Origin: Candidatus Saccharimonadota bacterium
Lineage (GTDB): Bacteria; Pseudomonadota; Alphaproteobacteria; CAJXXZ01; 1604HC
Direction of reading: 5' to 3'
DNA length: 32,000 nt
NCBI RefSeq assembly: GCF_008189285.1
Contig: NZ_CP043315.1
Location: forward strand, 270,001 to 302,000
This document shows, piece after piece, positions 8,304 through 23,495 of this stretch. Numbering within the stretch: the stretch's first letter is position 1; each line of letters starts with the position of its first letter. A model generated the notes under the pieces. That model saw only the letters and a list, made by a program, of their open reading frames with translations. It was not told the origin of the DNA and ran no database searches. A program made the translations under genes and the position numbers.

Positions 8304-11021
8304 ATGAAATATAAAAATAAATTTTTATTGTCATTAGTAGTGCTATTAAGCGCGGATTGTATGAAAGGTAATCTTGAAAATAATCATATTGCCAGAGATT
8401 TAATGGAACAACTTTCAAAGACACAAGCTATGAATGCAATGAAAGCACATCAAGAAACAATTGATTCTATTCTTTTCATTAACCAAGGAGATTATTACTT
8501 AATTCAAGATGGTCATATGTACAAAGTTGACGATAGTTTGAAAAGTTCTATTTATGCAGATGCTACAGTAGCAAAAATTTCAGATGAAGTAAAAGCAAAA
8601 ATTACTGCAGGAGCAGTGGTTAACAGCGATAAAGAAGTAATTGATTCTGTTTTTGAATTTGTTAACAAAAAATCAACAGATGCTAAAATGAATTTATCTA
8701 ATTTAATGAACACTTTGTTAGAAGATGGGCTTTCTTCTGAAGATGATTTATTTGTTAGAGTTATTTCTGGATCTGAATTAAGCAACAGTGATGCTAATGC
8801 ATCCATTGATAGCTTAAACGATATTGATGAAGAGCATAAAAGTGAATTAAAAACATCTGTGTTGGTATCTGGAAATATTGATTATAAAAATAAGCATGAA
8901 GCATTGATTAGTGCGCAAAAAGAATTAGCACAATTTGCTGAAGACAACAGTGTTGCATTAAAAACTGCAATGAATAAAGCTGAAGCTGCTAAAGAAGAAT
9001 TAATTGAAAATGCAAGCAAAATCAGCGCTACATCTCATGAGATAAAATTAGCAAAACTTTATGCAGAGCAATTGAATATTATGAAAACTTATAAAGAGAA
9101 GATTGAATCTGATCAACGTAAGCTTAATTCTAAAGAAAATTCTGTGTTAGAGCTTAAAAGTGGTTCAGAGCGTGAAGCTGAAGAATTTAATCAAATTATG
9201 AGAAATGCTGTAGAAGCTGTAAGTATGATCAAAGCAATGCATAATGAATTAGATTTCTGGAAAACAAATGTTGGAGGAAGTGGAAGCGATAACCAAACAG
9301 CTAGAATGACTAGTTTTTACAACAAACTAAATGCAATGACAAACTTAATAGAGGTGTCAGGAATAGTTTATGCTAAAAATAATAGTGGTGAGTTAAATAG
9401 TTATGATCAATACAAAACAATGATTGAAGATCAAGACTTTATTAGCAAGATGAGCTCGCTTTCCATTGAAGGAGATAGCAATCCTATTTCAAAAGCTATA
9501 TATAATTTGTTGCAAATGACCAATTCATTAATAAAGTACCATGCTGCTTTCAACAGATCTCAATCTTTAGAATTTTCAGATTCAATAATTGAATTAAGCA
9601 GAGATTATTATAGAACTAATAGCAATGGAGACAAAGAGATTGAAATTGGAACTTTTGAATACATTGGTATCATGAGAGATGCGCAAAATAAAGATTACAC
9701 TTCCCAAGAAAATGATGCAGAGCTTATAGATCATGTAGAAAAAGCAATAAAAGTAGGGGTATCTTACGAAGAATTATTGCCTAGCGATGCTCTTGTTAAA
9801 GTTGATGCTGCATATAGACATATCCTAGATTCTGATAACACAGCAAAAGAAATAGAACTTGATGCAAAATTGATTGAACAATTAATGTTTGATGCAAATC
9901 AAGTTGTTGTAATAATAGATAATGCAGAAGTAATAATTGATTACAGCGATCTAATGATTACAAATGATGAGAAAGAAGAATTTTCGTATTTCCAGTATTC
10001 ATATGAAAGCGATGATGAAAAAGTAGAGCTTGATGAGAAAATTAGAGCAATTTTGATTAAAAAGCTTAAAGAGCATGCTTTAAGATCGACAGAAATCATG
10101 AAAATTGAAGCAAAAGAGTCTTGGGTTTCTATGAATGATACTATGGGAACACTAAATCAAGCTATTAACAATAACCTTGAAAAATCTCAAGATGATGATG
10201 GAAAATATACAAATATAGCCATGTATTACATTGCTGAACTTTCTGGGTTTGATGGTTCTAATTATGAAGAATTAAATAATGCTGTTAAAGATCATTTGAC
10301 AAGTCTTGGCTATGATGGGATAAACAAACCACAAGACATAGGAATCAGATGGAATTTTATACTTGGTGATCTTTACAATGAAGACTTATTGAATGTTTAT
10401 AAAAATGCTGTAAATGTTAAAAAAGCTTTAGCTGCATTAAAAATTGAGAAAGAAAAAGAAGAGCCTAGCGCTGAATTGAAACAAGATATCGAAGGTAAAA
10501 AAATAGAAGCAGAAAAATATAGCAATGCATTGCATGATTTTGTATATACTCCTGAGCCAGGAAATGGAAATGATCTAAATATTCCTGAAATCTTATGGAG
10601 TGGAGAAGGCGCCGCTTCTAGCTCAGTTAGCATATCATCAGGAAATAGAACAAGAGCAGGTTCTGCTAGATCAATATTTGATGAATATGTAGGGTATGGA
10701 AGATTCCAAGAAGGAATTGACAATTCTCTAAAAACATTAACAAATCCATTCGCAGGCGCAGCTTATTCTGCAGAGAAAACTGTACATACAAACTCTTTGG
10801 ATGCTCTTAATGCTGCAATTACAGAATTGGAAGCAAAGTTTAATGAAATAAATATTGATTCTGATGCATACAAATTTGAACTAGAGAAAAGCGCTGAATT
10901 GCATGCAGAAATAGATGTTCTTAATGTTGAAGTTAGTGCAAAATATCAAGATCAAGAAGATAAAGTTGCTGGATTGCAATCAGAATTAGATGCAATTCGT
11001 GAACAAATTAAAAATGCATAA
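8304..11021 (+). CDS. hypothetical large acidic, coiled-coil-rich secreted or surface protein
   Basis: A 905-aa uninterrupted ORF in a very AT-rich background, with GGAGG 4 nt upstream of the ATG. The N-terminus MKYKNKFLLSLVVLLSADC looks like a signal peptide. I recognise no family motif. Confidence 0.8.
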   Translation: MKYKNKFLLSLVVLLSADCMKGNLENNHIARDLMEQLSKTQAMNAMKAHQETIDSILFINQGDYYLIQDGHMYKVDDSLKSSIYADATVAKISDEVKAKITAGAVVNSDKEVIDSVFEFVNKKSTDAKMNLSNLMNTLLEDGLSSEDDLFVRVISGSELSNSDANASIDSLNDIDEEHKSELKTSVLVSGNIDYKNKHEALISAQKELAQFAEDNSVALKTAMNKAEAAKEELIENASKISATSHEIKLAKLYAEQLNIMKTYKEKIESDQRKLNSKENSVLELKSGSEREAEEFNQIMRNAVEAVSMIKAMHNELDFWKTNVGGSGSDNQTARMTSFYNKLNAMTNLIEVSGIVYAKNNSGELNSYDQYKTMIEDQDFISKMSSLSIEGDSNPISKAIYNLLQMTNSLIKYHAAFNRSQSLEFSDSIIELSRDYYRTNSNGDKEIEIGTFEYIGIMRDAQNKDYTSQENDAELIDHVEKAIKVGVSYEELLPSDALVKVDAAYRHILDSDNTAKEIELDAKLIEQLMFDANQVVVIIDNAEVIIDYSDLMITNDEKEEFSYFQYSYESDDEKVELDEKIRAILIKKLKEHALRSTEIMKIEAKESWVSMNDTMGTLNQAINNNLEKSQDDDGKYTNIAMYYIAELSGFDGSNYEELNNAVKDHLTSLGYDGINKPQDIGIRWNFILGDLYNEDLLNVYKNAVNVKKALAALKIEKEKEEPSAELKQDIEGKKIEAEKYSNALHDFVYTPEPGNGNDLNIPEILWSGEGAASSSVSISSGNRTRAGSARSIFDEYVGYGRFQEGIDNSLKTLTNPFAGAAYSAEKTVHTNSLDALNAAITELEAKFNEINIDSDAYKFELEKSAELHAEIDVLNVEVSAKYQDQEDKVAGLQSELDAIREQIKNA

Positions 11022-11173
11022 TTTAGCAATCTAATTGTTTATATTAAGTATTGGTAATATTAATAATGAGCGTTAGAAATCTAACATTTATATAAAATTA
11101 CAAAAACACCTTAAAGAGCTTGTAGAAATGCAGTGCTTATGCAATGAATTGAAAAGCTATAAAGTATTATCAT

Positions 11174-11216
11174 TTTCTTTGCAAGTATTATTTAAAATTA
11201 AATCAAAGGAATGGTA
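11174..11216 (+). promoter_or_regulatory. conserved 5' module TTTCTTTGCAA-N9-AAAATTAA-...AAGGA upstream of the IQ-motif protein gene
   Basis: See the alignment in the findings. The similarity to the 543-aa gene continues into the first 26 nt of coding sequence (ATGAAATATATCT[T/A]TTTAAGCATTG). Confidence 0.4.
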
Positions 11217-14200
11217 ATGAAATATATCTTTTTAAGCATTGTTGTCTTATTAATCTCAAACTCTCATATTGTGGCAGATGAAATAAATGATGATGAAATA
11301 TCACAAAATAAAATTGTAGAAAAAATCTATAAAAGAAAAATAAAACCAACTATTTCTAAAAAGAACAGTATAAAAAAAAGAAAATCAAGAAAATCTAAAC
11401 TTAAAGCCACAAAAAGAAGCAGAATAACTGGATCTAAAAGGCGAAAATTACCCGCAAAAAGAAGAAAGTCCTCTGCATCAAAATTGACCAAAAGATCATC
11501 AAGAAAAAGAGTTAGATTAAGTAGGGCAAAATATCCAATTGCAAAAAAACTTAATAAGATTAACTCTGTAGCTGTAAAGATTTCATATGAAGATATATAT
11601 AAAAATGAAATTAGAAAATTACAAGAAAAAGAAAATGAAATTAGAAATAAATTAATTGCTAGTAAAAATAATCATATGCTAGAAATAAAACTTAACAAAG
11701 AATTGACTAGCCTGCATTTGAAAACGATGCATTACAAATTATTGTTAAACAAACCCAATGATATATCAATGCAAATAAAGCAATTATCAAGCATGCAAAT
11801 GGATATTAGAAACAAATTTGACAAAGAAAAAGATCAAGCACAGAAAGATAAGCTGAGAAAAGAATTGCATGCCATTAGTGTGAATATAAATCATTATAAA
11901 TCACTATTAAATAGAAATAGATCTATGAAATCTGATTCATTATCAAGAAGAGATATGTCCGTAGAAGTTAATTTCAGGCCAAAAATTAACGAACCAAAAA
12001 GCACTGAGGGCGCAACTATATTGATGACAAAAGAACAAACTATATCACGTCCTGAAGAAATTGCAATTATTGCCCCAAAAGATTCTGTTGCATTAATAGA
12101 ATCATCAAGTAAAATTGAAAATCCTGCTAGAGACTCAGTTGTTTTAAAAAATAGCGAGCAAACAATTGTTAATCCAAAGAAATTAGTTGAGCTTGAAAGC
12201 GCATCATCAACAATAACAAATAAAGAAGATAAAAAAGAAGCGATCACCTTAGTGGAAAAAGAAGAGTATATAAGTAGAGATGAGCATAAAAAAAAGACTG
12301 TTGAATTATCTGGACATATGCATGAGATTAAATCAGAACACACAAAGCCTAATTTGATTGAGAAGGGGTCGCAGTTAGCAATTCCTCAATTTAAGGAAGA
12401 GGTAAAACTATTTGCGAATGATAAATCAATTACATCTCCAATAAGGGAAGAGCAGAAAAAAATAATTGAAGAAGAAAAACAACAACAATCAGCAACAAAG
12501 ATTCAAGCTTTATTTAGAGGAAGAAGTGCTAGAAAAGCAACTGAAGTAAAGAAAGTTGCTGAAGCAGAAGAGAAAAAGCTAGAAGAAGCAAGATTGAGTG
12601 AAGAAGAAAATAGAAAATTAATTAAATCTGAAGAGAAAATAGATAGAGAAGAAGGAGAAAAAAAGATTCGACTTTTATTGGAAAAATTAGTTGAAATAAA
12701 AGATATAAGAGCTACAACAGACAAAAGAAAAGAAAGGAATAAAAAATCAGAAGAAGAAAAAGAAACAAGAAAAGAAGTTGAAATAGTAGAGAGAAAGGAA
12801 ATAGAAGAACTAAAAGCTAAAGAAGAAAGAGCAAGAAAAGAAGTAGAAGCAAGATTAGATACAGAAGAAAAAGCAGCAACAAAGATTCAAGCTTTATTTA
12901 GAGGAAGAAGTGTAAGAAAAGCAACTGAAAAAACAACCCCAAAAGATATTGAAAGGAATAGCTCATCTGCCCCTTTAACTCCAAGAAAATTAAGTTTTGA
13001 TTCCTCAGACGATAGATCTTCAAGAGCTGAATCAGTCGATCATACACCTGGGCATGAAGATAAAAGAATATCAAGAGGATCAGATAGATCAACGTTTTCT
13101 TCAGATTCAACTTCTTCAAAAGGTTCAAAAAGATCATTAACAAAAGAGGAAATTGCAAAAAAAAATCAAAGCGCGAAGGTTGAAATAAACAATAATATAG
13201 AAGGGCAAAGAAGAAATGAAGCAATAACAAGAAAAAAGAACAAAGATATAAATAATAGAAAAAAAATAAAAATAAAACAAAACAAAATTAGAGCTAATAA
13301 TAGAATTAAACAAAATAAATTAAGAAAAGAAAAAGATCTGAGATTGTTCGGAAGAAAAATAGCAGAAGAAACTAATAGAAAACAAAAAGAATTAGAGAAA
13401 ATTAGAAAAGATAAACTAGATATTAAGCGGCTCAGTGAAGAAGAAAGTCGCACAAGGTCTGAATTGCAAAAAGAAGAAAGTTCTGGAAGATTAATGATAA
13501 AAGATTCTAAAGATAAAAATACATGGAAAGAAATTGCATTAAGTGAGAGTGATAATAACACTGAAGGACATGAAAATGATGATGAAAGCATGATTTCTGA
13601 AGAAATAACTCAAATTGAAAAAACTCTTGATCAGTTGAATGGAGAAAAGAAATCTATAGAAAATGGCATAAGAGAGTTTAAAAATAAAGTTGTGTTAAAA
13701 AATAAAGAAAAAGCAGAGTTAGCAAAAGATTTAAAAAAATTAAATGAATTGAAGAAAAAATCAGAAGAAAAATCTAATGAAAAAACACTTCCATTTGGAA
13801 GAACAAATCTTCAAAAGCTTAATGAAGCAGTTAAAAAACATGGAGGGTCAAATGCTGTAATTTTAATTGCAAGCATTGGAGAAAAAATTACAAGTTTAGG
13901 AAACGAAATAGTAGAATTAGAAAAAAACAAAAAAAAGCATGAAGAGAAATTAATTGCAGTGGAGAATGAAATTAAATCTAAACAAAAAGAATTGCAAACA
14001 AAGAAAAGCTTGCTTGAAAGAATAAAAAATGCCTTTAAAGCAGCGAGATCAAAAGTTATCCCTAGTAAAAGCAAAAAAAATAACAATCGAAATGCAGGAT
14101 CATCTGTAATTCCTTATTATGATGAAAGTCGTGAGGTATATTTATTGGATCCACAAATAACTCCTTACACATCTGAAAGAAGAAAAAATAATGACACAAA

Positions 14201-14318
14201 ATCTAGATCACCTTCTGGAAGTAGGTCAAATTCATTAAACTCTCCTTCTAAGTCTTCTTCTGCCAAAAATAAAACTCCACCTAAGTCAAAATATGCACAT
14301 ACAATATATTCTTATTAA
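11217..14318 (+). CDS. hypothetical secreted, hyper-charged protein with two IQ motifs
   Basis: A long ORF (1035 aa from the ATG at 11211). I prefer the ATG at 11217 because MKYIFLSIVVLLIS... then aligns with the paralogous MKYIYLSIAALLIS... and sits 6 nt after AAGGA. The order is signal peptide, a K/R/S polybasic tract, coiled-coil-like segments, and IQxxxRGxxxR twice. Confidence 0.85.
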   Translation: MKYIFLSIVVLLISNSHIVADEINDDEISQNKIVEKIYKRKIKPTISKKNSIKKRKSRKSKLKATKRSRITGSKRRKLPAKRRKSSASKLTKRSSRKRVRLSRAKYPIAKKLNKINSVAVKISYEDIYKNEIRKLQEKENEIRNKLIASKNNHMLEIKLNKELTSLHLKTMHYKLLLNKPNDISMQIKQLSSMQMDIRNKFDKEKDQAQKDKLRKELHAISVNINHYKSLLNRNRSMKSDSLSRRDMSVEVNFRPKINEPKSTEGATILMTKEQTISRPEEIAIIAPKDSVALIESSSKIENPARDSVVLKNSEQTIVNPKKLVELESASSTITNKEDKKEAITLVEKEEYISRDEHKKKTVELSGHMHEIKSEHTKPNLIEKGSQLAIPQFKEEVKLFANDKSITSPIREEQKKIIEEEKQQQSATKIQALFRGRSARKATEVKKVAEAEEKKLEEARLSEEENRKLIKSEEKIDREEGEKKIRLLLEKLVEIKDIRATTDKRKERNKKSEEEKETRKEVEIVERKEIEELKAKEERARKEVEARLDTEEKAATKIQALFRGRSVRKATEKTTPKDIERNSSSAPLTPRKLSFDSSDDRSSRAESVDHTPGHEDKRISRGSDRSTFSSDSTSSKGSKRSLTKEEIAKKNQSAKVEINNNIEGQRRNEAITRKKNKDINNRKKIKIKQNKIRANNRIKQNKLRKEKDLRLFGRKIAEETNRKQKELEKIRKDKLDIKRLSEEESRTRSELQKEESSGRLMIKDSKDKNTWKEIALSESDNNTEGHENDDESMISEEITQIEKTLDQLNGEKKSIENGIREFKNKVVLKNKEKAELAKDLKKLNELKKKSEEKSNEKTLPFGRTNLQKLNEAVKKHGGSNAVILIASIGEKITSLGNEIVELEKNKKKHEEKLIAVENEIKSKQKELQTKKSLLERIKNAFKAARSKVIPSKSKKNNNRNAGSSVIPYYDESREVYLLDPQITPYTSERRKNNDTKSRSPSGSRSNSLNSPSKSSSAKNKTPPKSKYAHTIYSY
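12501..12533 (+). other. IQ motif 1 (IQALFRGRSAR) within the 1033-aa protein
   Basis: An exact fit to the IQxxxRGxxxR consensus. The context SATKIQALFRGRSARKATE resembles neuromodulin AATKIQASFRGHITRKK. Confidence 0.7.
12885..12917 (+). other. IQ motif 2 (IQALFRGRSVR) within the 1033-aa protein
   Basis: An exact fit to IQxxxRGxxxR in the context AATKIQALFRGRSVRKATE. The DNA patch 12876..12929 is 52/54 identical to 12492..12545. Confidence 0.7.
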
Positions 14319-14411
14319 CTTGATTAATTATTATCCGTGATGAGGGAGAATAAAGTGAAAATTCCAAGGACAGCTCTTTTGTTTATTAGTTAAGCAAACT
14401 ATAATGTGCGC

Positions 14412-14996
14412 ATGAAGATATTCATAATTTTTGCTTTATGTATGTCTATTTCTGGGAAAAGTCTTTCTCAAGAATCGCATATTGTTTTTCTTGGTAAAAT
14501 TTTAGATTACCATTCGGATCATGATGAAATAAACTTGATTAATCAAAGAAATATTTCTCTGAATAAACTGAGGTTAGATTTTCCGCTTTTTGATTTATTT
14601 ATTTCTCAGAAAAATAAAACTTCTTTTGCAAAATGGTTTTATCATTTTTGCTCTTTGTCTATTATGAATTCGAGTAGAAAAAAACAAATGCAAGAAATTT
14701 ATAGCCTTATTAATATTTCTGTTGATGGATTTATTAATGGGGTCATGCAATTAAACTCTATTGATTGTAGCACTTTGTCAGATAATGCAAAAAATTGGAT
14801 TGATAGAGCGCAATTATGGATTAAAGCTTACAAAAAATTCGAAAAATCATATCAAGATAAATCTGGAAAGTTATATCAAAATAATAATCACGATATAACT
14901 AGAAAAATAAGTGAAAAGTCTTTTAAAAATAAATTTGAACAAAAAACAAATGAAAAGCTTGATGAGAAAAATTCTAAGAAAGTGGATGAAATATGA
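14412..14996 (+). CDS. hypothetical exported or membrane-anchored protein (possible reduced HemX/Mic60-like)
   Basis: The ORF has a hydrophobic N-terminus, MKIFIIFALCMSISGKSLSQ. Its stop overlaps the next gene's start (ATGA). The C-terminal ...LSDNAKNWIDRAQLWIKAYKKFEK resembles the end of mitofilin/HemX-type domains, but the match is weak. I prefer the ATG at 14412 over the track's GTG at 14406. Confidence 0.6.
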   Translation: MKIFIIFALCMSISGKSLSQESHIVFLGKILDYHSDHDEINLINQRNISLNKLRLDFPLFDLFISQKNKTSFAKWFYHFCSLSIMNSSRKKQMQEIYSLINISVDGFINGVMQLNSIDCSTLSDNAKNWIDRAQLWIKAYKKFEKSYQDKSGKLYQNNNHDITRKISEKSFKNKFEQKTNEKLDEKNSKKVDEI

Positions 14997-15733
14997 TTTT
15001 TAAAATAATATCTATAATATTGATTGTAATTACAATTAAAATATTTGATTTTATACCAATTCACATTAAAGTAGGAGATCTGAATTATAAATGCAATTTT
15101 TCTATCATAATTTTATTTGCGATGATGCTTTCTTGGATTATTTATTATTTTTGCAATTTAAAATATTGTATAAAATCCCACTGCAATAAATCTAAGCAAA
15201 GCAAGATGGAAAAACAAGAAATTGAAACAAATAAGAAAATAATTCAACAATCAATTGAAAATGTTTGCAAGATTTGTTTAAGCAATTATAATGATTTAAA
15301 TGGCCTAATAAGCGAAAATGATAAAAATGATAAAATTAATGAAGTTGAAAAAAGTTGCGCTCATAATAGAAGCATTTTAATTGATATGATTGATATGATT
15401 TGCAATGTTAATTTTCATAGTGCGAAAAATCTTGACTTATATATAAACGATAAATTATTTGAATTTATAGAAAAATCATATGAGTATTTAAGAAATAACA
15501 ATTACATTAAAGCGCAGGAAAGTTTAGAAAATTTGTATGATCATGTAAAAATATCGCCAAAAATTCATAATTATAAGTGCATTTATGAGAATTTATATGT
15601 TTGTTATATAGAAAATAAAGAATATGATAAATGTCAAAATATGTTAGATGATTTATATAAACGAAATGCAATTAATAAGGATCAATATGATGAAAAATGC
15701 AGAGGAATACTGAAGTATGGGAAAATTATATAA
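14993..15733 (+). CDS. hypothetical membrane protein, HemY_N-like N-terminus with a helical (TPR-like) C-terminus
   Basis: Two N-terminal hydrophobic helices flank IHIKVGDLNYKCNFS, compared with E. coli HemY VLIQTDNYNIETSV between its two TM helices. The C-terminal half is helical, with TPR-like Y/L/N spacing. Confidence 0.6.
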   Translation: MIFKIISIILIVITIKIFDFIPIHIKVGDLNYKCNFSIIILFAMMLSWIIYYFCNLKYCIKSHCNKSKQSKMEKQEIETNKKIIQQSIENVCKICLSNYNDLNGLISENDKNDKINEVEKSCAHNRSILIDMIDMICNVNFHSAKNLDLYINDKLFEFIEKSYEYLRNNNYIKAQESLENLYDHVKISPKIHNYKCIYENLYVCYIENKEYDKCQNMLDDLYKRNAINKDQYDEKCRGILKYGKII

Positions 15734-15859
15734 TAAGTCTAAATGCTAATCATGCTGTACAAAATATGCGAAATATGAAAAAATAATTTATTAGAAATCT
15801 TGTTATAAGATTTACTTGTAGGCTATTTTGTGTTCTAATTTACTTATTAAGGAGATTTT

Positions 15860-16387
15860 ATGAGTAGATTGCTTATGCCACGTTCTACAGCGCTGTGGTT
15901 ATTAAATAATACTAAATTAACATTGCAACAAATATCCAGTTTCTGCTCAATGTCCATTTTAGATCTAGATGTTATGAAGAGAGGATTTTCCGATTCTGCA
16001 TTACAAGAAAGCGACCCTGTTAGCAGAGGTCAGTTGTTATTGGAAGAAATAGAATTATGCGAAGAAAATCCAAGCAGGAAATTAAGCTTGAATGTTGTAG
16101 TAGAAGTTAAAAGTGAAATTAGGAAAATTCCATATAAATTAAAGAAGCAACTATCTAAATTTATTTCATGGATGCATAGAAATTATCCAGATTTGACAAA
16201 CAAAGAGATTGCAAAATTCTTTGGAGTAACGCAAAAAACTGTAGAAGATGTTGTGGATAATCCTAATTCATTTTTTGAAGCTTCAGACCCAATTTTAAAT
16301 GGAGTGTGTTCGAAAGAACATTTAAATGCTTTTATTGAAAAAGTAGAGCAAAATAGAGAAAAGGCTGCTAAGAAAAGTAAAAAATAA
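15860..16387 (+). CDS. DUF1013-family protein (alphaproteobacteria-restricted; annotated in some genomes as a cell-cycle regulator)
   Basis: MSRLLMPRSTALWLLNNTKLTLQQISSFC...DPVSRGQLLLEEIELCEENPSRKL...ISWMHRNYPDLTNKEIAKFFGVTQKTVE...DPILNGVC follows the conserved DUF1013 pattern (LMPKATAVWL..NT.L.F.QIA.FC, DP...GQLT.EEI..CE). AAGGAG lies 6 nt upstream of the ATG. Confidence 0.8.
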   Translation: MSRLLMPRSTALWLLNNTKLTLQQISSFCSMSILDLDVMKRGFSDSALQESDPVSRGQLLLEEIELCEENPSRKLSLNVVVEVKSEIRKIPYKLKKQLSKFISWMHRNYPDLTNKEIAKFFGVTQKTVEDVVDNPNSFFEASDPILNGVCSKEHLNAFIEKVEQNREKAAKKSKK

Positions 16388-16775
16388 TTAAATTATTGCA
16401 TTATTTAAAAGTAATTCTTAGAAATTATATTTCTTCTTGGATTTTCCTTCTTTTTATTCAATTTAGATATTTGAATTTCTTAAAATAACATTCATTTTAT
16501 TAATTATAAATCAAGAAATATAATTATATATGCACTAGAAGTATAACCAATGATTTCAGAATTAATGAAAAAATTATTTATCAATATTGCGCGATACACT
16601 ATTTAGATACAGCTGTTCTCTATTAGAGGTTGTATTTATTATATAAATTATTTTCATAAAAATTTACATTCAATGCTGCTTGCTAGCTCTATATTGCATA
16701 TTTATTTTTATATGAAGCTGATATAATCTAGGGAAATAGTGAAAAATACAAAAACCATGAAAGGTATAAATCAAA

Positions 16776-17300
16776 ATGCATGATTTTATATTGTTAACAA
16801 GTTCTTTTCTTGTAGGATCTATCCCATTTGGAAGGATTTGGTCTTTTTTGTTAGGGAAAAAAGATTTGAGAAATTGTGGATCAGGAAACATAGGAACAAC
16901 CAATGCTTTTAGGGTTAATGGAAAAGTTGTTGGAATTCTAACTGCTTTGTTTGATGTAGGGAAAGGATTTGCATGTTTGTTATTTCCTAATCCTGCTTTA
17001 TTTGGATCATGGATAGTAATTGGTCATATTTATGCACCATGGTCAGGTGGAAAAGGAGTCGCTGCATTTTTCGGAATATGTTTAGCAATTCTAAAATTTT
17101 ACGCACTAATACCTATGATTACATGGATCGCATTGGTTTATTGCAAAATTAGACCAACTTATGCTAGTTATGTAGCATTATTCATTATGTGTATTATTGC
17201 ATTTATTAAAGTTCAAGAGATTTTTATGTTAATAGCTTTGTTAAGTGTGGCAATTATATACAAACATATTGTTTCTGACCTATCCAAGAGATGCAGATGA
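16776..17300 (+). CDS. plsY: glycerol-3-phosphate acyltransferase PlsY
   Basis: A polytopic membrane ORF carrying the PlsY signature LVGSIPFGRIW...GSGNIGTTNAFRVNGK. Confidence 0.85.
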   Translation: MHDFILLTSSFLVGSIPFGRIWSFLLGKKDLRNCGSGNIGTTNAFRVNGKVVGILTALFDVGKGFACLLFPNPALFGSWIVIGHIYAPWSGGKGVAAFFGICLAILKFYALIPMITWIALVYCKIRPTYASYVALFIMCIIAFIKVQEIFMLIALLSVAIIYKHIVSDLSKRCR

Positions 17301-18406
17301 TAAAGTATGAACAGAATAATAATAAATTCAATAAAATTCTAACCGAAGAAGAAAAAATAGATTTTCTAAGAGTTATTAGGACGAAAAATATTGGCCCAAT
17401 TAGCTTTTTTCACTTGTTAAATACTCATAAAACTATAGATAAGGTAATTAAATTTTTAGAAACAAAACTTGAAGTTAAATCTAAAACATATGCTGTAGAA
17501 GAAATGAGAAAAATTCGTAATTATGGAGCTGATATTATATGTTTTTCAGAGCCAAATTACCCTATTTTATTACGTGAAATTAGAGATTGCCCTCCCGTTA
17601 TTTGCGCAAAAGGTGATTTGGGCATATTAAGTAGAGAGAAGCTTTTTGCAATTGCTGGGTCTAGAACATGCTCTGTACAAAGTCAAGTTATGACAAAAAG
17701 AATTACATCTGAATTAGGAGAAAATGGATACACTATAGTTTCAGGATTAGCTCGTGGAATTGATACATGCGCTCATCAGAATAGTTTAAATACTGGAACA
17801 ATTGCAGTTCTTGCAAATGGGATAGATCATGTTTACCCATCAGAAAATAAATCATTATACGAAAAAATTGCAATAAAAGGCGTTATATTATCAGAAGTAG
17901 AATTTGGAACAAAGCCATCTGCGCATTTATTCCCAAATCGAAATCGAATTATTGCTGGAATGAGTTTGGGAGTGTTAATTGCAGAAGCTAGTGTAAAATC
18001 TGGATCTCTAATTACTTCTCAATGTGCTCTAGAAAATGGTCGAGATGTTTTTGCTATACCTGGATGCCCGCTTGATCCTCGTTCGCGTGGTGCAAATAAA
18101 TTGATTAAACAAGGAGCTGCTTTAGTAGAATTTATTCACGATATTACAAATGCATTTGAAGATTTTTCTCTCAAAGAGCCAGTTGAGAGCTATATTCCAG
18201 AAATAAAATACGATTTCTCTGAGAAGCAACTATCTGATTATAGCGAGAAATTATTAGATATGATTGGATTTTTCCCAATTTCGATAGAATTACTTATTAA
18301 TAAAATGGATATTCCGATCAGTACGGTTAGAGCGCTGCTTGCTCAGCTTGAAATCGAAGGGAAAATATCGCATTCTTGGGGAAATAAAGTTTCATTGCGA
18401 AGATAA
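17291..18406 (+). CDS. dprA: DNA-processing protein DprA/Smf
   Basis: The DprA core motifs are present: GSRTCS...SGLARGIDTCAH...GTIAVLANGIDHVYPSEN...FPNRNRIIAGMS...AEASVKSGSLITSQCALENGRDVFAIPG. It overlaps plsY by 10 nt. Confidence 0.9.
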   Translation: MQMIKYEQNNNKFNKILTEEEKIDFLRVIRTKNIGPISFFHLLNTHKTIDKVIKFLETKLEVKSKTYAVEEMRKIRNYGADIICFSEPNYPILLREIRDCPPVICAKGDLGILSREKLFAIAGSRTCSVQSQVMTKRITSELGENGYTIVSGLARGIDTCAHQNSLNTGTIAVLANGIDHVYPSENKSLYEKIAIKGVILSEVEFGTKPSAHLFPNRNRIIAGMSLGVLIAEASVKSGSLITSQCALENGRDVFAIPGCPLDPRSRGANKLIKQGAALVEFIHDITNAFEDFSLKEPVESYIPEIKYDFSEKQLSDYSEKLLDMIGFFPISIELLINKMDIPISTVRALLAQLEIEGKISHSWGNKVSLRR

Positions 18407-18582
18407 TGTAATTCGCAAATAAATTTTCTTTACAAGTGATTTATGAAAATAAATATTAACATGGAAAATTCATTGTATAGTATAAATTTGCATAAATAAA
18501 TATTTCTATGAAAATGATTGGTGAAAATATCAATGTAAAAAATAGCATTGTTTTATGTTGCTTGCTTTTAGCGTTTAGTATT

Positions 18583-18656
18583 TATATTTCTATCGATTTC
18601 ATTTGGCTGCAGCTTTATTTTATATTTCTATCGATTTCATTTGAATGCAGTTTTAT
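18583..18656. repeat. tandem duplication of a ~36-38-bp unit (TATATTTCTATCGATTTCATTTGRMTGCAGYTTTAT)
   Basis: The copies at 18583..18618 and 18621..18656 differ at 3 positions. They lie in the convergent intergenic region between dprA and the 543-aa gene. Confidence 0.8.
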
Positions 18657-18781
18657 GTTAGATAAATATTTCTGTTAAAGATTTATGATGAGCTTAATCT
18701 CTCAATCTACTTCCATTTTTACAATGTTTTTTAAATTATTTCTTTTTTCTAAGCTCATTTCACGCTTCAGTAAGTTTATTA

Positions 18782-20413
18782 CTAGATGTCATTTTCATCA
18801 GAATCTTTATAATTACCAGACATCATACGTTGCCTAATCAGTGCCTTTCTCATTTTTTCTTCAAATTCGCTTTTTGTTTCTTTCGCTTTCTTTAATTTGA
18901 AGTTTCCTTTTCTTATTTCTGCGAACAAATCCGCTCTGCTATCTTGATCTTCACTTAAAGGCATTGAAGCTTTAGACAAGCCTTTTATTCCTTCTTTAGG
19001 AAGTGCTGGGGCATCAGGAATTGCTCCAGTTTTAGGCGCAGGAGGAGGTGTTGGAATTGCTCCAGTTTCAGATGCAGGAGTTTCGTCAAAAGCTATTTCT
19101 CCCATTGATAATTTATCAGCTCTTTTTTCTGCAGCAAGATCAAGAGCTTTTCTTTTTTCTCTGCCTTTTTCTTCAAGCTCTATCAGAAAACTCGCTTTAG
19201 TTGAATTTCCAGATGTTGCTTTAGACAAGCCTTTTATCCCTTCTTTAGGAAGTGCTGGGGCATCAGGAATTGCTCCAGTTTTAGGCGCAGGAGGAGGTGT
19301 TGGAATTGCTCCAGTTTTAGGCACAAGAGGAGGTGTTGGAATTGCTCCAGTTTCAGATGCAGGAGTTTCGTCAAAAGCTATTTCCCCCATTGATAATTTA
19401 TCAGCTCTTTTTTCTGCAGCAAGATCAAGAGCTTTTCTTTTTTCTCTGCCTTTTTCTTCAAGCTCTATCAGAAAACTCGCTTTAGTTGAATTTCCAGATG
19501 TTGCTTTAGACAAGCCTTTTATCCCTTCTTTAGGAAGTGCTGGGGCATCAGGAATTGCTCCAGTTTCAGATACAGAAGTTTGAAGTGCTGCATTAGTTGA
19601 ATTGTCTCCTGCTATTTTAGGAATTGAAAAATAATCATCATCTACATTAGTTGAATTGTCTGCTGTTTTTTTAGGTGAATTCAACGAAGGTGCATTTATG
19701 CTTCCTTTTGCTGATCTTTCAATTTCGTTCATCTCTTGAGAAGCATTTTGTTCGATTGCACTTCTCTTGCTATGTTCTTCTATTAAAAATGCTGAGGAAT
19801 TTTCTAGAATATTTTTAGCTTTATTAGTTGCAAATTGAGTGCTTTTAATTTTTGATTCAACAACAAATAATCTATTTTCCAATTCCACTTTTTCTTTTGC
19901 TGTTAATTTTGTGTTGTTTGTCAATTTTGTTGTTAACGCCATTTTCTCTGCATTCATGCTTCTTAGATCAGTCATATTTTTGTCATAATCTTTAGATAAT
20001 TGGTCATAATAAGAAACTGTTGCGCTTTTTGTTTTTGCAGATGATGCAGATGATCTTGAAGTTGGTCTGAAGCTTCTTCTTGCAATTCGTCTTCCAGATC
20101 TAGTTGCGCTTCTTCTAAATACAGGCTTGCGAGATCTTGAAATTCTTCTTTTAGCAGCTCTTCTTGATTTGGAAGTAACTTTCCTTCTTTTAGCAGCGGA
20201 TTTTCTTCTTGATTTAGCAGCGGATTTTCTTCTTGATTTGGAAGTAACTTTCTTTCTAGATTTTCTTTTTGTTTTTTTAAACGATTTATCATCGCTTTTT
20301 TTTATTTCAGTGTGAACAGGCTTTCCCTCTACAATACTCATGTTAACTTCTTTTGCATCAGCATATGTATTAGAAATCAATAAAGCGGCAATGCTTAAAT
20401 AGATATATTTCAT
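18782..20413 (-). CDS. hypothetical secreted protein: signal peptide, polybasic tract, coiled coil, proline-rich tandem repeats, C-terminal WH2/connector/acidic (WCA-like) tail
   Basis: A 543-aa ORF with AAGGAG 7 nt upstream of the ATG. The N-terminus MKYIYLSIAALLISNTYA|DA looks like a Sec signal peptide. The C-terminus ADLFAEIRKGNFKLKKAKETKSEFEEKMRKALIRQRMMSGNYKDSDENDI carries the WCA-like tail. Confidence 0.9.
   Translation of the reverse strand: MKYIYLSIAALLISNTYADAKEVNMSIVEGKPVHTEIKKSDDKSFKKTKRKSRKKVTSKSRRKSAAKSRRKSAAKRRKVTSKSRRAAKRRISRSRKPVFRRSATRSGRRIARRSFRPTSRSSASSAKTKSATVSYYDQLSKDYDKNMTDLRSMNAEKMALTTKLTNNTKLTAKEKVELENRLFVVESKIKSTQFATNKAKNILENSSAFLIEEHSKRSAIEQNASQEMNEIERSAKGSINAPSLNSPKKTADNSTNVDDDYFSIPKIAGDNSTNAALQTSVSETGAIPDAPALPKEGIKGLSKATSGNSTKASFLIELEEKGREKRKALDLAAEKRADKLSMGEIAFDETPASETGAIPTPPLVPKTGAIPTPPPAPKTGAIPDAPALPKEGIKGLSKATSGNSTKASFLIELEEKGREKRKALDLAAEKRADKLSMGEIAFDETPASETGAIPTPPPAPKTGAIPDAPALPKEGIKGLSKASMPLSEDQDSRADLFAEIRKGNFKLKKAKETKSEFEEKMRKALIRQRMMSGNYKDSDENDI
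18887..18934 (-). other. candidate WH2 (G-actin-binding) motif ADLFAEIRKGNFKLKK
   Basis: It matches the WH2 pattern LLxxIxxGxxLKK(V/A) with one extra residue before LKK. Compare WAVE (RSVLLEAIRKGIQLRKV) and N-WASP (ALLDQIRQGIQLKSV). Confidence 0.65.
18968..19567 (-). repeat. near-identical in-frame tandem repeats (249 bp, 285 bp, and a partial third of ~60 bp) encoding proline-rich and helical modules
   Basis: Units begin at 18971, 19220 and 19505. Units 1 and 2 differ by 2 substitutions plus a 36-bp indel that adds one more TGAIPTPPxxPK sub-repeat. Confidence 0.9.
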
Positions 20414-20459
20414 TACTATTCTCCTTTTATTTTAATTTTAAATATGATTTGCAAAGAAA
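20414..20459 (-). promoter_or_regulatory. conserved 5' module (reverse complement: TTTCTTTGCAA-N9-AAAATTAA-...AAGGAG) upstream of the 543-aa gene
   Basis: This is the third occurrence of the motif at the same distance from the start codon. Confidence 0.4.
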
Positions 20460-20676
20460 TTGCTAATTGATAGGAGAAATTGCTTATACTTAACTTATCA
20501 TGATTTAATTCTACATAAATTTATTTATCAAACATCGCTTTATTTCAATGATTTGTTTGTTTTAAAAAGAATTTAGAAAGAAAAGAGCAAATGATTTTTG
20601 AAGAATATTTGAAGTGATTTGCTTGTAAAATTTACAGAATAATGAGATCTTTAACACAAAGGAACTCAATTTTCTC

Positions 20677-21498
20677 ATGACATTTCTAGAAATTATCGAT
20701 AGATTAGAGAAGTTTTGGATAAAATTTGGTTGTAAAATTATTCATCCTGCTGATATGACAGTTGGAGCTGCAACTATGCATCCACACTTTATTTTAAATG
20801 CATCTAAAAAACATAGGTTGGCTTATATGCAACCATGCAGAAGGCCGCAAGATAGTAGGCCAGATAGCAAAAATAGACTTTATAAGCATCATCAATTCCA
20901 AGTTACAATTAATCCTGTAATGGAAAATATTCAAGATGTATTTTTGGACAGTTTGCTTGATATTGGATTTGATTTAGATGTTCATGAAATTAAATTTCTT
21001 GCTGGAAACTGGCAAAGTCCAAGTTTGGGAGCATTTGGAGTAGGTAGTGAAGTTTGGGCAAACAATAGCGAAATTGCGCAATTTACTTATTTTCAACAAG
21101 TGGGTGGAAAGCCATTAAGTGAACAAGTTGTTGAATTGACTTATGGACTTGAAAGAATCGCAATGAGTTTGCAGAATATTGAAAATTGGCGAGATATAAT
21201 ATGGCAAGATGGAGTTAAATATGATGATATAGATGATTCAGAGTTTAGCATTGCCTCTAATAATAATTATAATGTTGAGTATCTTAAAAATACTTTTGAT
21301 ATGCATTTAAATGAATCAATTCATTTATTGAGTTTGAATTTGCGATACCCAGCATACGAGGAATTTTTGAGAGCTAGTCACGCATTTAATACATTAGAAT
21401 CCAGGCAAGCATTCAGTCCTACACAACGCGTTGATGAGTTAAATAAATTGAGAAGTGTGGGGCAGAAATGCGCAAGCCAAGAAAGCAATAAATCATGA
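20677..21498 (+). CDS. glyQ: glycine--tRNA ligase alpha subunit
   Basis: FLEIIDRLEKFW...GC.I..P.DM.VGA.T.HP...YMQPCRRPQDSR...NRLYKHHQFQV...LTYGLERIAM is a typical GlyQ sequence. Confidence 0.95.
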   Translation: MTFLEIIDRLEKFWIKFGCKIIHPADMTVGAATMHPHFILNASKKHRLAYMQPCRRPQDSRPDSKNRLYKHHQFQVTINPVMENIQDVFLDSLLDIGFDLDVHEIKFLAGNWQSPSLGAFGVGSEVWANNSEIAQFTYFQQVGGKPLSEQVVELTYGLERIAMSLQNIENWRDIIWQDGVKYDDIDDSEFSIASNNNYNVEYLKNTFDMHLNESIHLLSLNLRYPAYEEFLRASHAFNTLESRQAFSPTQRVDELNKLRSVGQKCASQESNKS

Positions 21499-23495
21499 AT
21501 AAATTTTTATTTGAAATTATGCACGAGAGCATTCCTAGTGAAATAATAGAGACTAGTAAGAAAAGATGGATTGATGCAATTAAAAGTGAATTTGAAGACC
21601 ATCAAATCAGAAATGTTTCTCTTGATATTTATTTGACTAATACAAGAGTTATAACTTCTGTAAATGATTTGCCAAGCGAGATTTGCAAAGATGATGAAAT
21701 TATCAAGGGTCCGAAATCTAGCATCGCTGATGAAATATTGGAGAAATTTCTTAAAAAACATGGAAAAAATAAATCAGATGCATATGTGGAAAATGGATTC
21801 TATTATGTAAAAAACATTTATGCTTCAAAAAACATTGAAGATATGATTCCTGAGATTTGTATAAATATCATGAAAAAAATGAAATGGAACAAAGTAATGT
21901 TCTGGAGCAAGAAAATGGGATGGATCAGGCCAATTAGGAGATTGGTATCAATTTTTAATGGAAGTCCAATGCTTTGGCATATGGATGCTATTGATTTATC
22001 TACTTCATCTTCTTTTATATATGATTTAATTAAAAGAGAAGAGTTTATTGCGTCTAATTTTGAAGAATATGAAAATTGCCTAGAAAACAAAAATATATAT
22101 TTAGAAGAAAGCAAAAAATTGGATATTTTGATTATGGAGATTGAAAATTCTTTTAGAAAACTTAAATCAACTAATGAGAATGATAAAAACACAAAATTGA
22201 TTATTAATAATGAGAATAATAACAAAAATGATCAATTTCTTGATAATAATTCCGATAATAACTTTGAAAACAATAAAAAGTTATGCTGTATTAATCAAAA
22301 AGATATTTTAAGAATTTGCTCTCAAATGGAATCTGTAAATGTATATTGCGCAGAGATTAATGACACTTTTGAAATACCTAATGAAATCAAGCAGGCTATT
22401 CTAAAAGAGCAGCAACATATTGGAATTTTTCATGGAAATATTTTGAAATATTTATTTGTATTTTCTGATTACGCATTGAAGAGCAGTGATTTGCTGTTAA
22501 GTCAAACTAAAAGAACTGTATTGTCGAAATTTAATGATGCATATTTCTTTTGGACAAGAGATATGGCATGCAATGAAGAGTATTATTCATCAAAATTGCA
22601 ATCAACTTTGTTTTATAAAGATTTAGGAAGCTTGTATCAAAAGTCAGAAAGAATTAAAAAAGTTGCAGAGAGATTATGTCCTAATAATGATAATTTAATA
22701 AGAGAAATTGGGCTTATTCAATTTGATTTATGCATGCAAACTGTAGATGAAATGACAGAATTGCAAGGATTGCTTTCTTATTTTTATGCAAAACGAAATA
22801 ACGAAAATGAAAATGTATGTAATATTTTGTATAATCAATATGTAAATAATATTTCTACAAAAGATGATTTGTATTTATCTTTATTGTACAATTTAGATAG
22901 CGCTCTTGCATTTATTGGAAAAGGGATGACGCCTAGTGGATCAGCAGATCCTTTGGCCATTAGAAGAAAATGCTTGCAAATTATTGATTGTATTATTAAA
23001 TTAAGTGAAAAAGGAATTTCTGTAAATTTAAATGAATTGATCGAGAATTTCAAATTGAATTTTGACAACCAGGGAATTTCTTTGGATTTATCTGGATTTT
23101 CTACATATTTCCAGAAGAGATGTGATTATGTTTTAAATAAAAAATATGGAATATTGTCTAAAATGAATAAAGAAAAAGACATAATAGATGCAAAGAAAAA
23201 GCTTGATAAATTATCTAGTTTTGCAGAATTAGATAAAATTGTTGAAGTGTATAACAGATTGAATAAGCTAGATTACGACAATGCAATTCACAGTCAAAAT
23301 TCCGATGAAACTGAAAATCAATATAAAGTTTTGATGGCTCTTATTGGCGAGGAAAATGATTTGAACAACTTGCTTAATATAAGTTATGAAGTAGAGAAGA
23401 TTTTTGACAAAGTATTTCTTGAAGATAATTTACATATAAAAGGCATGCTGTGCAAAATAAAGGAGAAATTTGAGCAATTTGCTGATTTTAAATAA
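21495..23495 (+). CDS. glyS: glycine--tRNA ligase beta subunit
   Basis: A 666-aa ORF starting in an ATGA overlap with glyQ. It carries the conserved GlyS motif SGSADPLAIRRK (compare DPFALRR). It contains an Asn-rich low-complexity insert. Confidence 0.9.
   Translation: MNKFLFEIMHESIPSEIIETSKKRWIDAIKSEFEDHQIRNVSLDIYLTNTRVITSVNDLPSEICKDDEIIKGPKSSIADEILEKFLKKHGKNKSDAYVENGFYYVKNIYASKNIEDMIPEICINIMKKMKWNKVMFWSKKMGWIRPIRRLVSIFNGSPMLWHMDAIDLSTSSSFIYDLIKREEFIASNFEEYENCLENKNIYLEESKKLDILIMEIENSFRKLKSTNENDKNTKLIINNENNNKNDQFLDNNSDNNFENNKKLCCINQKDILRICSQMESVNVYCAEINDTFEIPNEIKQAILKEQQHIGIFHGNILKYLFVFSDYALKSSDLLLSQTKRTVLSKFNDAYFFWTRDMACNEEYYSSKLQSTLFYKDLGSLYQKSERIKKVAERLCPNNDNLIREIGLIQFDLCMQTVDEMTELQGLLSYFYAKRNNENENVCNILYNQYVNNISTKDDLYLSLLYNLDSALAFIGKGMTPSGSADPLAIRRKCLQIIDCIIKLSEKGISVNLNELIENFKLNFDNQGISLDLSGFSTYFQKRCDYVLNKKYGILSKMNKEKDIIDAKKKLDKLSSFAELDKIVEVYNRLNKLDYDNAIHSQNSDETENQYKVLMALIGEENDLNNLLNISYEVEKIFDKVFLEDNLHIKGMLCKIKEKFEQFADFK

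Follow-up and report, generated by a model that had tools for sequence, protein, structure and literature searches.

The question raised by this locus is whether a bacterium that lives in the cytosol of a protist makes an exported protein that binds host calmodulin. The window analysed here, a stretch of 32,000 nt, comes from Ca. Cytomitobacter indipagum, a member of the Holosporaceae that lives as an obligate intracellular endosymbiont in the flagellate Diplonema aggregatum. This host belongs to the diplonemids, which rank with the most abundant and most diverse heterotrophic protists of the sea. The window contains an open reading frame (ORF) whose product is 100% identical to the 1033-aa 'hypothetical protein [Candidatus Cytomitobacter indipagum]' (NCBI; 628,024-bp contig) and carries two IQ motifs, the calmodulin-binding motif of eukaryotes. 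The answer favoured here, to which a probability of about one half is given, is that the product (the IQ protein) is a modular exported protein that would act as a scaffold or sink by binding calmodulin, or a light chain related to it, from the host, and not an enzyme activated by calmodulin in the manner of Legionella SidJ.

The presence of the motifs was established by translation, pattern matching and profile search. The two cores lie in the contexts ...EEEKQQQSATKIQALFRGRSARKATEVKK... and ...DTEEKAATKIQALFRGRSVRKATEKTT... (residues of this protein are numbered from the ATG at 11211, not from that at 11217), and both match the core consensus, written either as [FILV]Qxxx[RK]Gxxx[RK] or as IQxxxRGxxxR. 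The Pfam IQ family (PF00612) matched the whole protein in two stretches with 33.7 bits (E 2.1e-8), and each motif taken alone as a 35-aa peptide scored above the gathering threshold of 20.3 bits (22.9 bits for motif 1 and 24.3 bits for motif 2); the reversed protein and three composition-matched shuffles gave no PF00612 match at E<=10. Given the length and composition of the protein, 0.008 occurrences of the pattern are expected, and the two IQ cores are its only matches across the six reading frames of the window. The initial annotation had claimed two motifs fitting IQxxxRGxxxR, with the AA/TK lead-in typical of eukaryotic IQ proteins, and had named the PF00612 scan as a check; both claims held, the lead-in as a residue-for-residue match to the eukaryotic AATKIQAxFRG subtype, and the scan was significant. 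Considered as a sequence, the bacterial motif is indistinguishable from bona fide eukaryotic IQ motifs of this subtype. Full IQxxxRGxxxR motifs with glycine at position 7 are the class most associated with apo-calmodulin.

The two motifs are copies of one another at the level of DNA. Positions 12492-12545 and 12876-12929 are identical at 52/54 nt amid differing flanks, as had been noticed from the sequence alone, and the identity is 55/57 when the comparison is extended from 12489 and 12873; an ungapped comparison of the flanks at the same offset of 384 nt gave background purine-rich similarity only. A repeat search of the gene returned 73 nt at 89% identity (family D1) as its sole substantial repeat. 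The codon is identical at 17/17 shared residues (P~7e-6 given the codon usage of the genes in the window), which argues for a nucleotide-level copy or gene conversion and not for constraint at the level of the peptide. Where gene conversion or strong constraint had initially been offered as explanations of the patch, the first is therefore retained and the second dropped. Judged from the DNA sequence, the second IQ motif arose recently through in-frame copying or gene conversion of a ~57-nt module, and the motifs are thus not independent and represent one evolutionary event. An old 384-nt tandem duplication, in which the IQ motif was kept by protein selection, was considered and rejected, because synonymous sites are identical too and the sequences that follow the motifs differ in character, with an E/K/R-rich helix after the first motif and a Ser/Pro-rich disordered segment after the second.

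The protein context of the motifs is a long predicted helix. AlphaFold2 applied to the fragment aa 405-600 modelled fragment residues 6-169 as a helix (mean predicted local distance difference test (pLDDT) 84.7, with blocks at 86-97), in which the first IQ motif lies near the helix start and the second at the helix end, the helix stopping just after it (TTPKD). The full-length single-sequence AlphaFold2 model contains a helix over residues 442-561 at pLDDT 71-81. The linker between the motifs, which spaces the IQ cores 128 residues (~19 nm) apart, is 64% charged (60% E+K+R, 4% D), with 0.4-0.57 opposite-charge i,i+3/i+4 pairs per residue, highest over aa 505-555. It is helical at pLDDT up to 97, has 27% hydrophobic residues including Ala, with a hydrophobic patch IRLLLEKLVEI, and has no Pfam match. 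In composition and charge pattern it resembles an ER/K single alpha-helix, although with the hydrophobic patch it may be either a single helix or a coiled coil.

The remainder of the protein adds features that may bear on its location. The real start is most likely the ATG at 11217 (MKYIF...), because AAGGA lies 6 nt upstream of it, the database entry begins there and the upstream ATG corresponds to ATA in a paralog described below. The N-terminus is laid out as MK, YIFLSIVVLLISN and SHIVA, followed across the predicted boundary by DE; its hydrophobic core has 13 residues, it is modelled as a helix over residues 3-16, and 15/22 of its residues are identical in the paralog. With a signal peptide predicted by eye from this sequence, the protein is probably exported. 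The genome of C. indipagum is reported to encode 106 predicted signal-peptide proteins (a count given without a gene list), a reduced Sec system, remnants of a type II secretion system or type IV pili and a modified type VI secretion system (bioRxiv 10.1101/719211). The N-terminus is followed by a polybasic tract, and region 25-120 has a net charge of +35 and contains KKRK, KRRK and RKRVR, which resemble nuclear localisation signals; the tract could direct the protein to acidic membranes, to the bacterial envelope or to the nucleus or nucleolus. The polybasic tracts of the IQ protein and the paralog share an absence of acidic residues and a richness in K/R/S/T/A. Predicted helical segments over aa 109-241 and then a disordered region follow the tract, and the C-terminal part of the protein is again largely helical, with helix 645-757 at pLDDT 84-91.

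No domain other than IQ was found by the Pfam scan, in which neither the N-terminal 420 aa nor the C-terminal helices had a match. Foldseek, run with the full-length model against the PDB, returned nothing at E<=1e-3 and generic long-helix proteins only, a null result that is silent on the fold because the mean pLDDT of the model is 54. There is no sign of an enzymatic domain in either the Pfam or the Foldseek search.

A second gene in the window begins in the same way as the IQ gene. The two genes share a 5' cassette, read in DNA as TTTCTTTGCAAnTnnTATTTAAAATTAAA...GTAATGAAATATATCT, whose copies are identical at 80/98 nt in local alignment and which includes, in the IQ gene, the ribosome-binding site AAGGA at 11206-11210. 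Two exact patterns taken from the cassette matched these two copies only in the window, with 0 matches expected by chance. A conserved element within the cassette, TTTCTTTGCAA...TATTTAAAATTAAA, is a candidate promoter or 5' untranslated region; a promoter and terminator scan around the IQ gene gave sites no commoner than in shuffled sequence. The proteins are related as well, since BLASTP aligned the paralog with aa 3-113 of the IQ protein, covering the signal-peptide-like N-terminus and the polybasic tract, at E 1e-7.

The paralog departs from the IQ protein beyond this region. It has three units rich in proline (TGAIPTPPPAPK...), of which two belong to a 285-nt tandem duplication, and its C-terminal part has a putative actin-binding WH2 motif. 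The WH2 family (PF02205, cutoff 23.1) matched a 44-aa peptide alone with 24.5 bits and the whole paralog with 19.7 bits, which is below the cutoff, and an FH1-like match over the proline repeats was weak and below threshold. The paralog is thus a candidate actin-binding effector on the evidence of its motifs. Its combination of proline-rich sequence and WH2 recalls RickA and Sca2 of Rickettsia, TARP of Chlamydia, VopL/VopF of Vibrio and ActA of Listeria, although it has no homology to these actin effectors and only one WH2 above threshold, as a peptide scanned alone. Internal duplication appears to be ongoing in this gene family, the 285-nt-period repeat in the WH2 gene being a parallel to the copied IQ patch. 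The WH2 gene also lies at a rearrangement breakpoint relative to C. primus. An alignment of the two N-termini found no further members among genome and metagenome contigs, a search in which the rest of the 628-kb genome stays uncovered. Of 149 pattern matches to TrcR in the genome contigs none was confirmed, and the source genome seems to be missing from that collection or masked in it. The cassette could serve as a probe for listing the gene family genome-wide.

Relatives of the IQ protein were sought among proteins, metagenomes and syntenic loci. Searched exhaustively with phmmer (E<=1e-3), 1.84 billion cluster representatives yielded eight proteins, the query itself and seven others, and there was no bacterial homolog among these representatives. 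All seven are multi-IQ-repeat proteins (...AATKIQAGFRGHKARKE...) that aligned to aa ~390-600 only; four come from named organisms, all of them eukaryotes (Diphylleia rotans, Effrenium voratum, Tachypleus tridentatus and Cacopsylla, the last as 'Neuromodulin'), one is a metagenomic 'myosin heavy subunit' and two are without a name. The closest sequences with a solved structure are the IQ motifs of two axonemal radial-spoke proteins, RSP23 and Sp17. A degenerate DNA search of metagenomes for ATKIQALFRG(R/S) found four contigs. One of these (L004, Ga0272412_1028049) has a long ORF of eukaryote type with the exact peptide AATKIQALFRG, in a layout that by eye looks like IQ + RhoGEF + RhoGAP, and two have near-identical 64-aa exon-like fragments. 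The fourth has AATKIQALFRG in an AT-rich fragment (L007:721-752; VFQS010138402.1, 1014 bp, 30% GC) that might be from another symbiont or a protist.

The neighbouring gene trcR was used to reach three related loci, those of C. primus (L001), of a ~622-kb genome (L002) and of Logan assembly SRR12358676 (L003), the last being the closest relative found (TrcR 79% identical). In this relative (L003:1-1005, compared with 8304..14996 of the window), the ortholog of the upstream orphan p905 is represented by its C-terminal 123 aa (28% identity, E 6e-13) and only 130 nt separate it from the ortholog of p196, the orphan downstream; identities to C. indipagum are 55% for p196 and 41% for p246, the next orphan downstream. 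The orphans with apparent signal peptides therefore diverge far faster than TrcR (28-55% versus 79% in this relative). Upstream of trcR, C. primus and the ~622-kb genome have a rearranged locus with orthologs of p196 and p246 only, and these genomes are silent on an IQ gene elsewhere. Compared with 14406..23495 of the window, their p196 and p246 orthologs and glyQ/glyS are inverted immediately upstream of trcR, and dprA is followed by topA, where in C. indipagum it is followed by the WH2 gene and glyQS.

The survey of homologues in related endosymbionts that the initial annotation had called for thus turned out negative, with no ortholog found and the gene absent at the syntenic site of the nearest relative. 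On these comparisons of sequence, the IQ gene is very young or very mobile, a lineage-specific innovation. Its GC content (25-32%) and codon choice (AGA, TTA, GGA, AAA) are native to the symbiont and so show no trace of recent foreign origin. Contamination of the assembly with host DNA was considered and rejected on the grounds of the closed bacterial chromosome context, the native GC and codons and the 5' end shared with another bacterial gene.

Of known systems, the calmodulin-activated glutamylases SidJ and SdjA of Legionella come nearest in function. The C-terminal 'IQxxxRxxRK' helix of SidJ binds calmodulin regardless of Ca2+, with a dissociation constant of ~90 nM (PMC6858067), and apo-calmodulin is the ligand of CopC and OspC3, which lack an IQ motif (PMC9239266). 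The SidJ precedent cited initially is accurate, but the analogy is loose: SidJ is an activated enzyme with a degenerate IQ motif, and here the motif is full and no catalytic domain was detected. Like SidJ and SdjA, the IQ protein belongs to an intracellular bacterium and has an IQ-type helix, for which calmodulin would mark the eukaryotic cytosol. Unlike SidJ, a kinase-like enzyme switched on by calmodulin, it has neither a catalytic domain nor sequence homology to that enzyme, and is for this reason not a member of the SidJ/SdjA family. Its two full IQ motifs lie in mid-protein (aa 431 and 559 of 1035) in contrast to one degenerate C-terminal motif, and in place of Dot/Icm delivery there is a predicted Sec-type signal peptide in an organism with reduced secretion machinery.

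Closer in motif are the small eukaryotic IQ proteins neuromodulin/GAP-43, neurogranin, PEP-19, Sp17 and RSP23, which have the identical subtype (A)ATKIQAxFRGxxxRK and act as non-catalytic calmodulin reservoirs or docking sites, the role proposed for the IQ protein. The likeness does not extend beyond the motif, as the bacterial protein has no other homology to them and is 1033 aa long, with a signal-peptide-like N-terminus, a polybasic tract and long helices. At position 14 it has Thr and not a hydrophobic residue, and Leu replaces the Ser of IQASFRG, which is phosphorylated by protein kinase C. The contiguity of IQ motifs with a long, predicted E/K/R helix of high charge is in turn like the neck and ER/K region of myosins VI, X and VIIa, a rigid rod decorated with light chains, but there is no Myosin_head match, and the IQ motifs flank the charged helix in place of forming a tandem array with one motif every 23-25 residues. 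By analogy, the strategy fits the copying of host short linear interaction motifs by bacteria.

The mechanism proposed on this basis would begin with a Sec signal peptide that carries the IQ protein out of the bacterial cytoplasm. The claim that the bacterium is intracellular agrees with the literature, in which C. indipagum is described as obligate intracellular and free in the host cytoplasm, without a surrounding host membrane (PMC5845003), so that anything at or beyond the bacterial surface would meet the host cytosol directly. The polybasic tract may anchor the protein to the envelope or to acidic host membranes, and the two IQ motifs would be held ~19 nm apart at opposite ends of one rigid, charged, 164-residue helix. 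Each motif would recruit a single calmodulin molecule of the host, or a calmodulin-like light chain of the EF-hand type, in the apo mode that needs no Ca2+ and is typical of full IQxxxRGxxxR motifs. As no catalytic domain is detectable, a scaffold, a tether or a local calmodulin sink is the most likely function, and the role would be closer to that of a motor-less myosin neck or of neuromodulin than to that of a calmodulin-activated enzyme.

Several results weigh against this reading. The extended consensus wants [FILVWY] at position 14, where both copies have Thr (positions 12-14 K-A-T), and the motif is complete through R11 without the distal hydrophobic anchor. The protein is of low complexity and rich in K/E/R/S (17% K, 12% E and 11% S overall), and short motifs arise easily in such sequence; as one copying event produced the pair, the duplication does not double the evidence. 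In the full-length AlphaFold model, pLDDT is <50 over both IQ cores. The route of the candidate exported protein across the outer membrane is a further difficulty, with secretion systems reduced and no autotransporter barrel or recognisable translocation signal. The 3.1-kb gene is missing between the p905 and p196 orthologs of the closest relative, and no ortholog was found anywhere, so that selection cannot be argued from conservation.

Much of this would be expected if the motif were a chance or neutral one, that is, if the gene were a rapidly evolving orphan of low complexity, either young and barely functional or coding for a coiled-coil protein with a periplasmic, surface or structural role, and if its K/R/A-rich helix had drifted into an IQ-like sequence that internal-repeat dynamics then duplicated, with no calmodulin bound in vivo. 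The orphan status of the gene and its absence at the syntenic site, its strongly biased composition, the Thr at position 14, the nucleotide-level duplication and the active duplication seen in the paralog (285-nt repeat, 97%) all suit such an origin, as does the occurrence of Pfam IQ matches, rare but present, in bacterial metagenome proteins (PMC7407188). The explanation is nevertheless considered somewhat unlikely, as each motif singly exceeds a curated threshold with a profile that takes in the AATK lead-in and the Gly, which the simple pattern does not demand, and as the pattern expectation is 0.008 per protein and four composition-matched controls were negative. The copy is also in frame, with both copies within one predicted helix. 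Chance is a poor explanation for the IQ/WH2 pair in particular, because two genes that share a cassette each carry a different eukaryotic motif in a bacterium of the host cytosol, and with the WH2 peptide above threshold alone, two such coincidences are hard to credit. A gene without any function, a decaying or non-expressed pseudogene-like remnant, is very improbable; the product is annotated only as hypothetical, has no homologs and includes much low-complexity sequence, but 1033 uninterrupted codons at 28% GC, where base composition predicts a stop every ~12 codons, a well-placed AAGGA, a 5' cassette common to another intact gene and long helices predicted with high confidence are not what decay would leave.

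Two further alternatives accept that the motifs may function. Calmodulin is not the sole ligand of IQ motifs, which take essential and regulatory light chains and calmodulin-like proteins as well, and the partner might be another EF-hand protein of the flagellate host (a myosin light chain, centrin or calmodulin-like protein). In that case the long helix would imitate the neck of a myosin, either competing for light chains or docking onto assemblies of the cytoskeleton or axoneme. The axonemal radial-spoke proteins nearest among solved structures, the resemblance of the IQ + ER/K layout to myosin necks followed by single alpha-helix domains and the cytoskeletal theme suggested by the predicted WH2 (actin) of the sister gene point in this direction. 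Against these, sequence does not discriminate between EF-hand partners, the motifs are of the class most associated with apo-calmodulin and their spacing is 128 residues and not the myosin-like 23-25, and a partner of this kind is regarded as distinctly unlikely. Capture of the IQ segment from eukaryotic host DNA, since ameliorated, concerns origin and would be compatible with function; it would explain why the only non-self matches in 1.84e9 proteins are IQ-repeat proteins, the named ones eukaryotic, why the motif agrees with its eukaryotic subtype residue for residue and why the gene is an insertion relative to the closest relative found. However, the similarity is confined to ~20 residues with flanks that do not align, GC content and codon choices are symbiont-typical, the N-terminal third is of bacterial, within-genome origin (paralogous to the WH2 gene) and no diplonemid protein is among the named matches, and such a capture appears quite improbable.

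The calmodulin-binding scaffold or sink favoured here gains a wider setting from the WH2 gene, in that both proteins look, from their sequences, like tools for grabbing host proteins. The two genes would form a small family in which one export or anchoring cassette is fused to different host-binding short linear motifs. It is tentatively proposed, as a possibility still on the doubtful side, that C. indipagum makes new host-facing proteins by fusing one cassette (promoter-proximal DNA, ribosome-binding site, signal peptide and polybasic anchor) to different eukaryotic motifs, IQ for calmodulin or light chains and proline-rich sequence with WH2 for actin or profilin, and that the products decorate the bacterial surface with host calmodulin and actin. 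If so, surface calmodulin and actin could control positioning beside mitochondria or segregation at host division, motif mimicry would have arisen de novo within one species, and diplonemid or Holosporaceae symbionts would gain their first effector system for which host targets are named.

The diplonemid Holosporaceae symbionts have genomes of ~0.62 Mb with 22-50% hypothetical genes, of which many products are predicted to be secreted, and their effector targets have been stated to be unknown (bioRxiv 10.1101/719211). The present locus supplies two concrete candidate host targets: the IQ protein would bind calmodulin, and its WH2 paralog actin. Neither calmodulin nor a cassette linking an IQ protein and a WH2 protein is mentioned in three papers on Cytomitobacter and the Holosporales (10.1101/719211, PMC11909080, 10.64898/2026.01.29.702485), and 'calmodulin', 'PF00612' and 'WH2' are all absent from one supplement of 10.1101/719211. 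A literature search did not find IQ calmodulin-binding combined with 'eukaryotic-like' or 'symbiont'. The IQ finding, which is drawn from motifs, is specific and unreported in those papers. Were it true, calmodulin hijacking by an IQ helix, so far known from Legionella SidJ/SdjA, would come to include a non-enzymatic tandem-IQ rod made by a protist mutualist or commensal, and the gene would be a clean case of species-specific, evolutionarily very young short-linear-motif mimicry. If the motifs do not bind, the locus shows how easily orphan genes of low complexity come to contain canonical eukaryotic motifs.

Table 1. Features of the IQ gene, the WH2 paralog and other orphan genes, in coordinates of the window.
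Feature	Position	Strand	Description
IQ-motif ORF	11217..14318	+	1033 aa from ATG 11217; 1035 aa from in-frame ATG 11211
5' cassette	11166..11260; second copy 20467..20370	+; second copy -	~51 nt of upstream DNA and first 44 coding nt
N-terminus resembling a Sec-type signal peptide	11217..11276	+	MKYIFLSIVVLLISNSHIVA, then acidic DEINDDE; read from sequence
Polybasic K/R/S tract	11328..11555	+	roughly aa 40-115; predicted disordered (pLDDT <50)
Predicted single continuous alpha-helix with both IQ motifs	12438..12929	+	aa 410-573; 164 residues, ~25 nm
IQ motif 1 patch	12489..12545	+	SATKIQALFRGRSARKATE; core IQALFRGRSAR, aa 431-441, nt 12501-12533
E/K/R-rich linker	12546..12875	+	aa 446-555; 29% E, 20% K, 11% R, no Pro
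IQ motif 2 patch	12873..12929	+	AATKIQALFRGRSVRKATE; core IQALFRGRSVR, aa 559-569, nt 12885-12917
Ser-rich disordered segment	12936..13142	+	~aa 576-644; 24% Ser, pLDDT <50, no secondary structure
C-terminal long helices	13143..14054	+	aa 645-757, 792-855, 865-876, 880-948; pLDDT 79-91
Disordered S/P-rich tail	to 14315	+	after the C-terminal helices
WH2 paralog	18782..20413	-	543 aa; between dprA and glyQ; starts MKYIYLSIAALLISNTYADAKE
Putative C-terminal WH2 actin-binding motif of paralog	~18872-18946	-	RADLFAEIRKGNFKLKKAKE
Direct repeat in WH2 gene	19017..19293 and 19302..19578		277 nt, 285-nt period, 97% identity
Third partial repeat copy in WH2 gene	18969..19044		76 nt
p905	8304..11021	+	905-aa orphan; helix-rich, export features; starts MKYKNKFLLSLVVLLSADC
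p196	14406..14996	+	196-aa orphan; export features; starts (V)RMKIFIIFALCMSISG
p246	14993..15733	+	246-aa orphan; export features, two hydrophobic segments, weak TPR-like match
481-aa ORF	29184..30629	-	clear signal peptide, MLVYLLLAIACVNA followed by EK

The genes around the locus are ordinary alphaproteobacterial housekeeping genes (pheS, trx, rplT, ychF, trcR, plsY, dprA and glyQ/glyS, together with a 5'-3' exonuclease gene, tyrS, groEL and rnhB), the GC content of the window is 28%, and tRNA and Rfam scans of the window gave no matches. The genes for p905, the IQ protein, p196 and p246 lie together on one strand upstream of trcR, as a cluster that encodes envelope or secreted proteins. The 481-aa ORF on the opposite strand (29184..30629) matched no Pfam family at E<=0.1, and its sequence pattern is suggestive of an outer-membrane beta-barrel.

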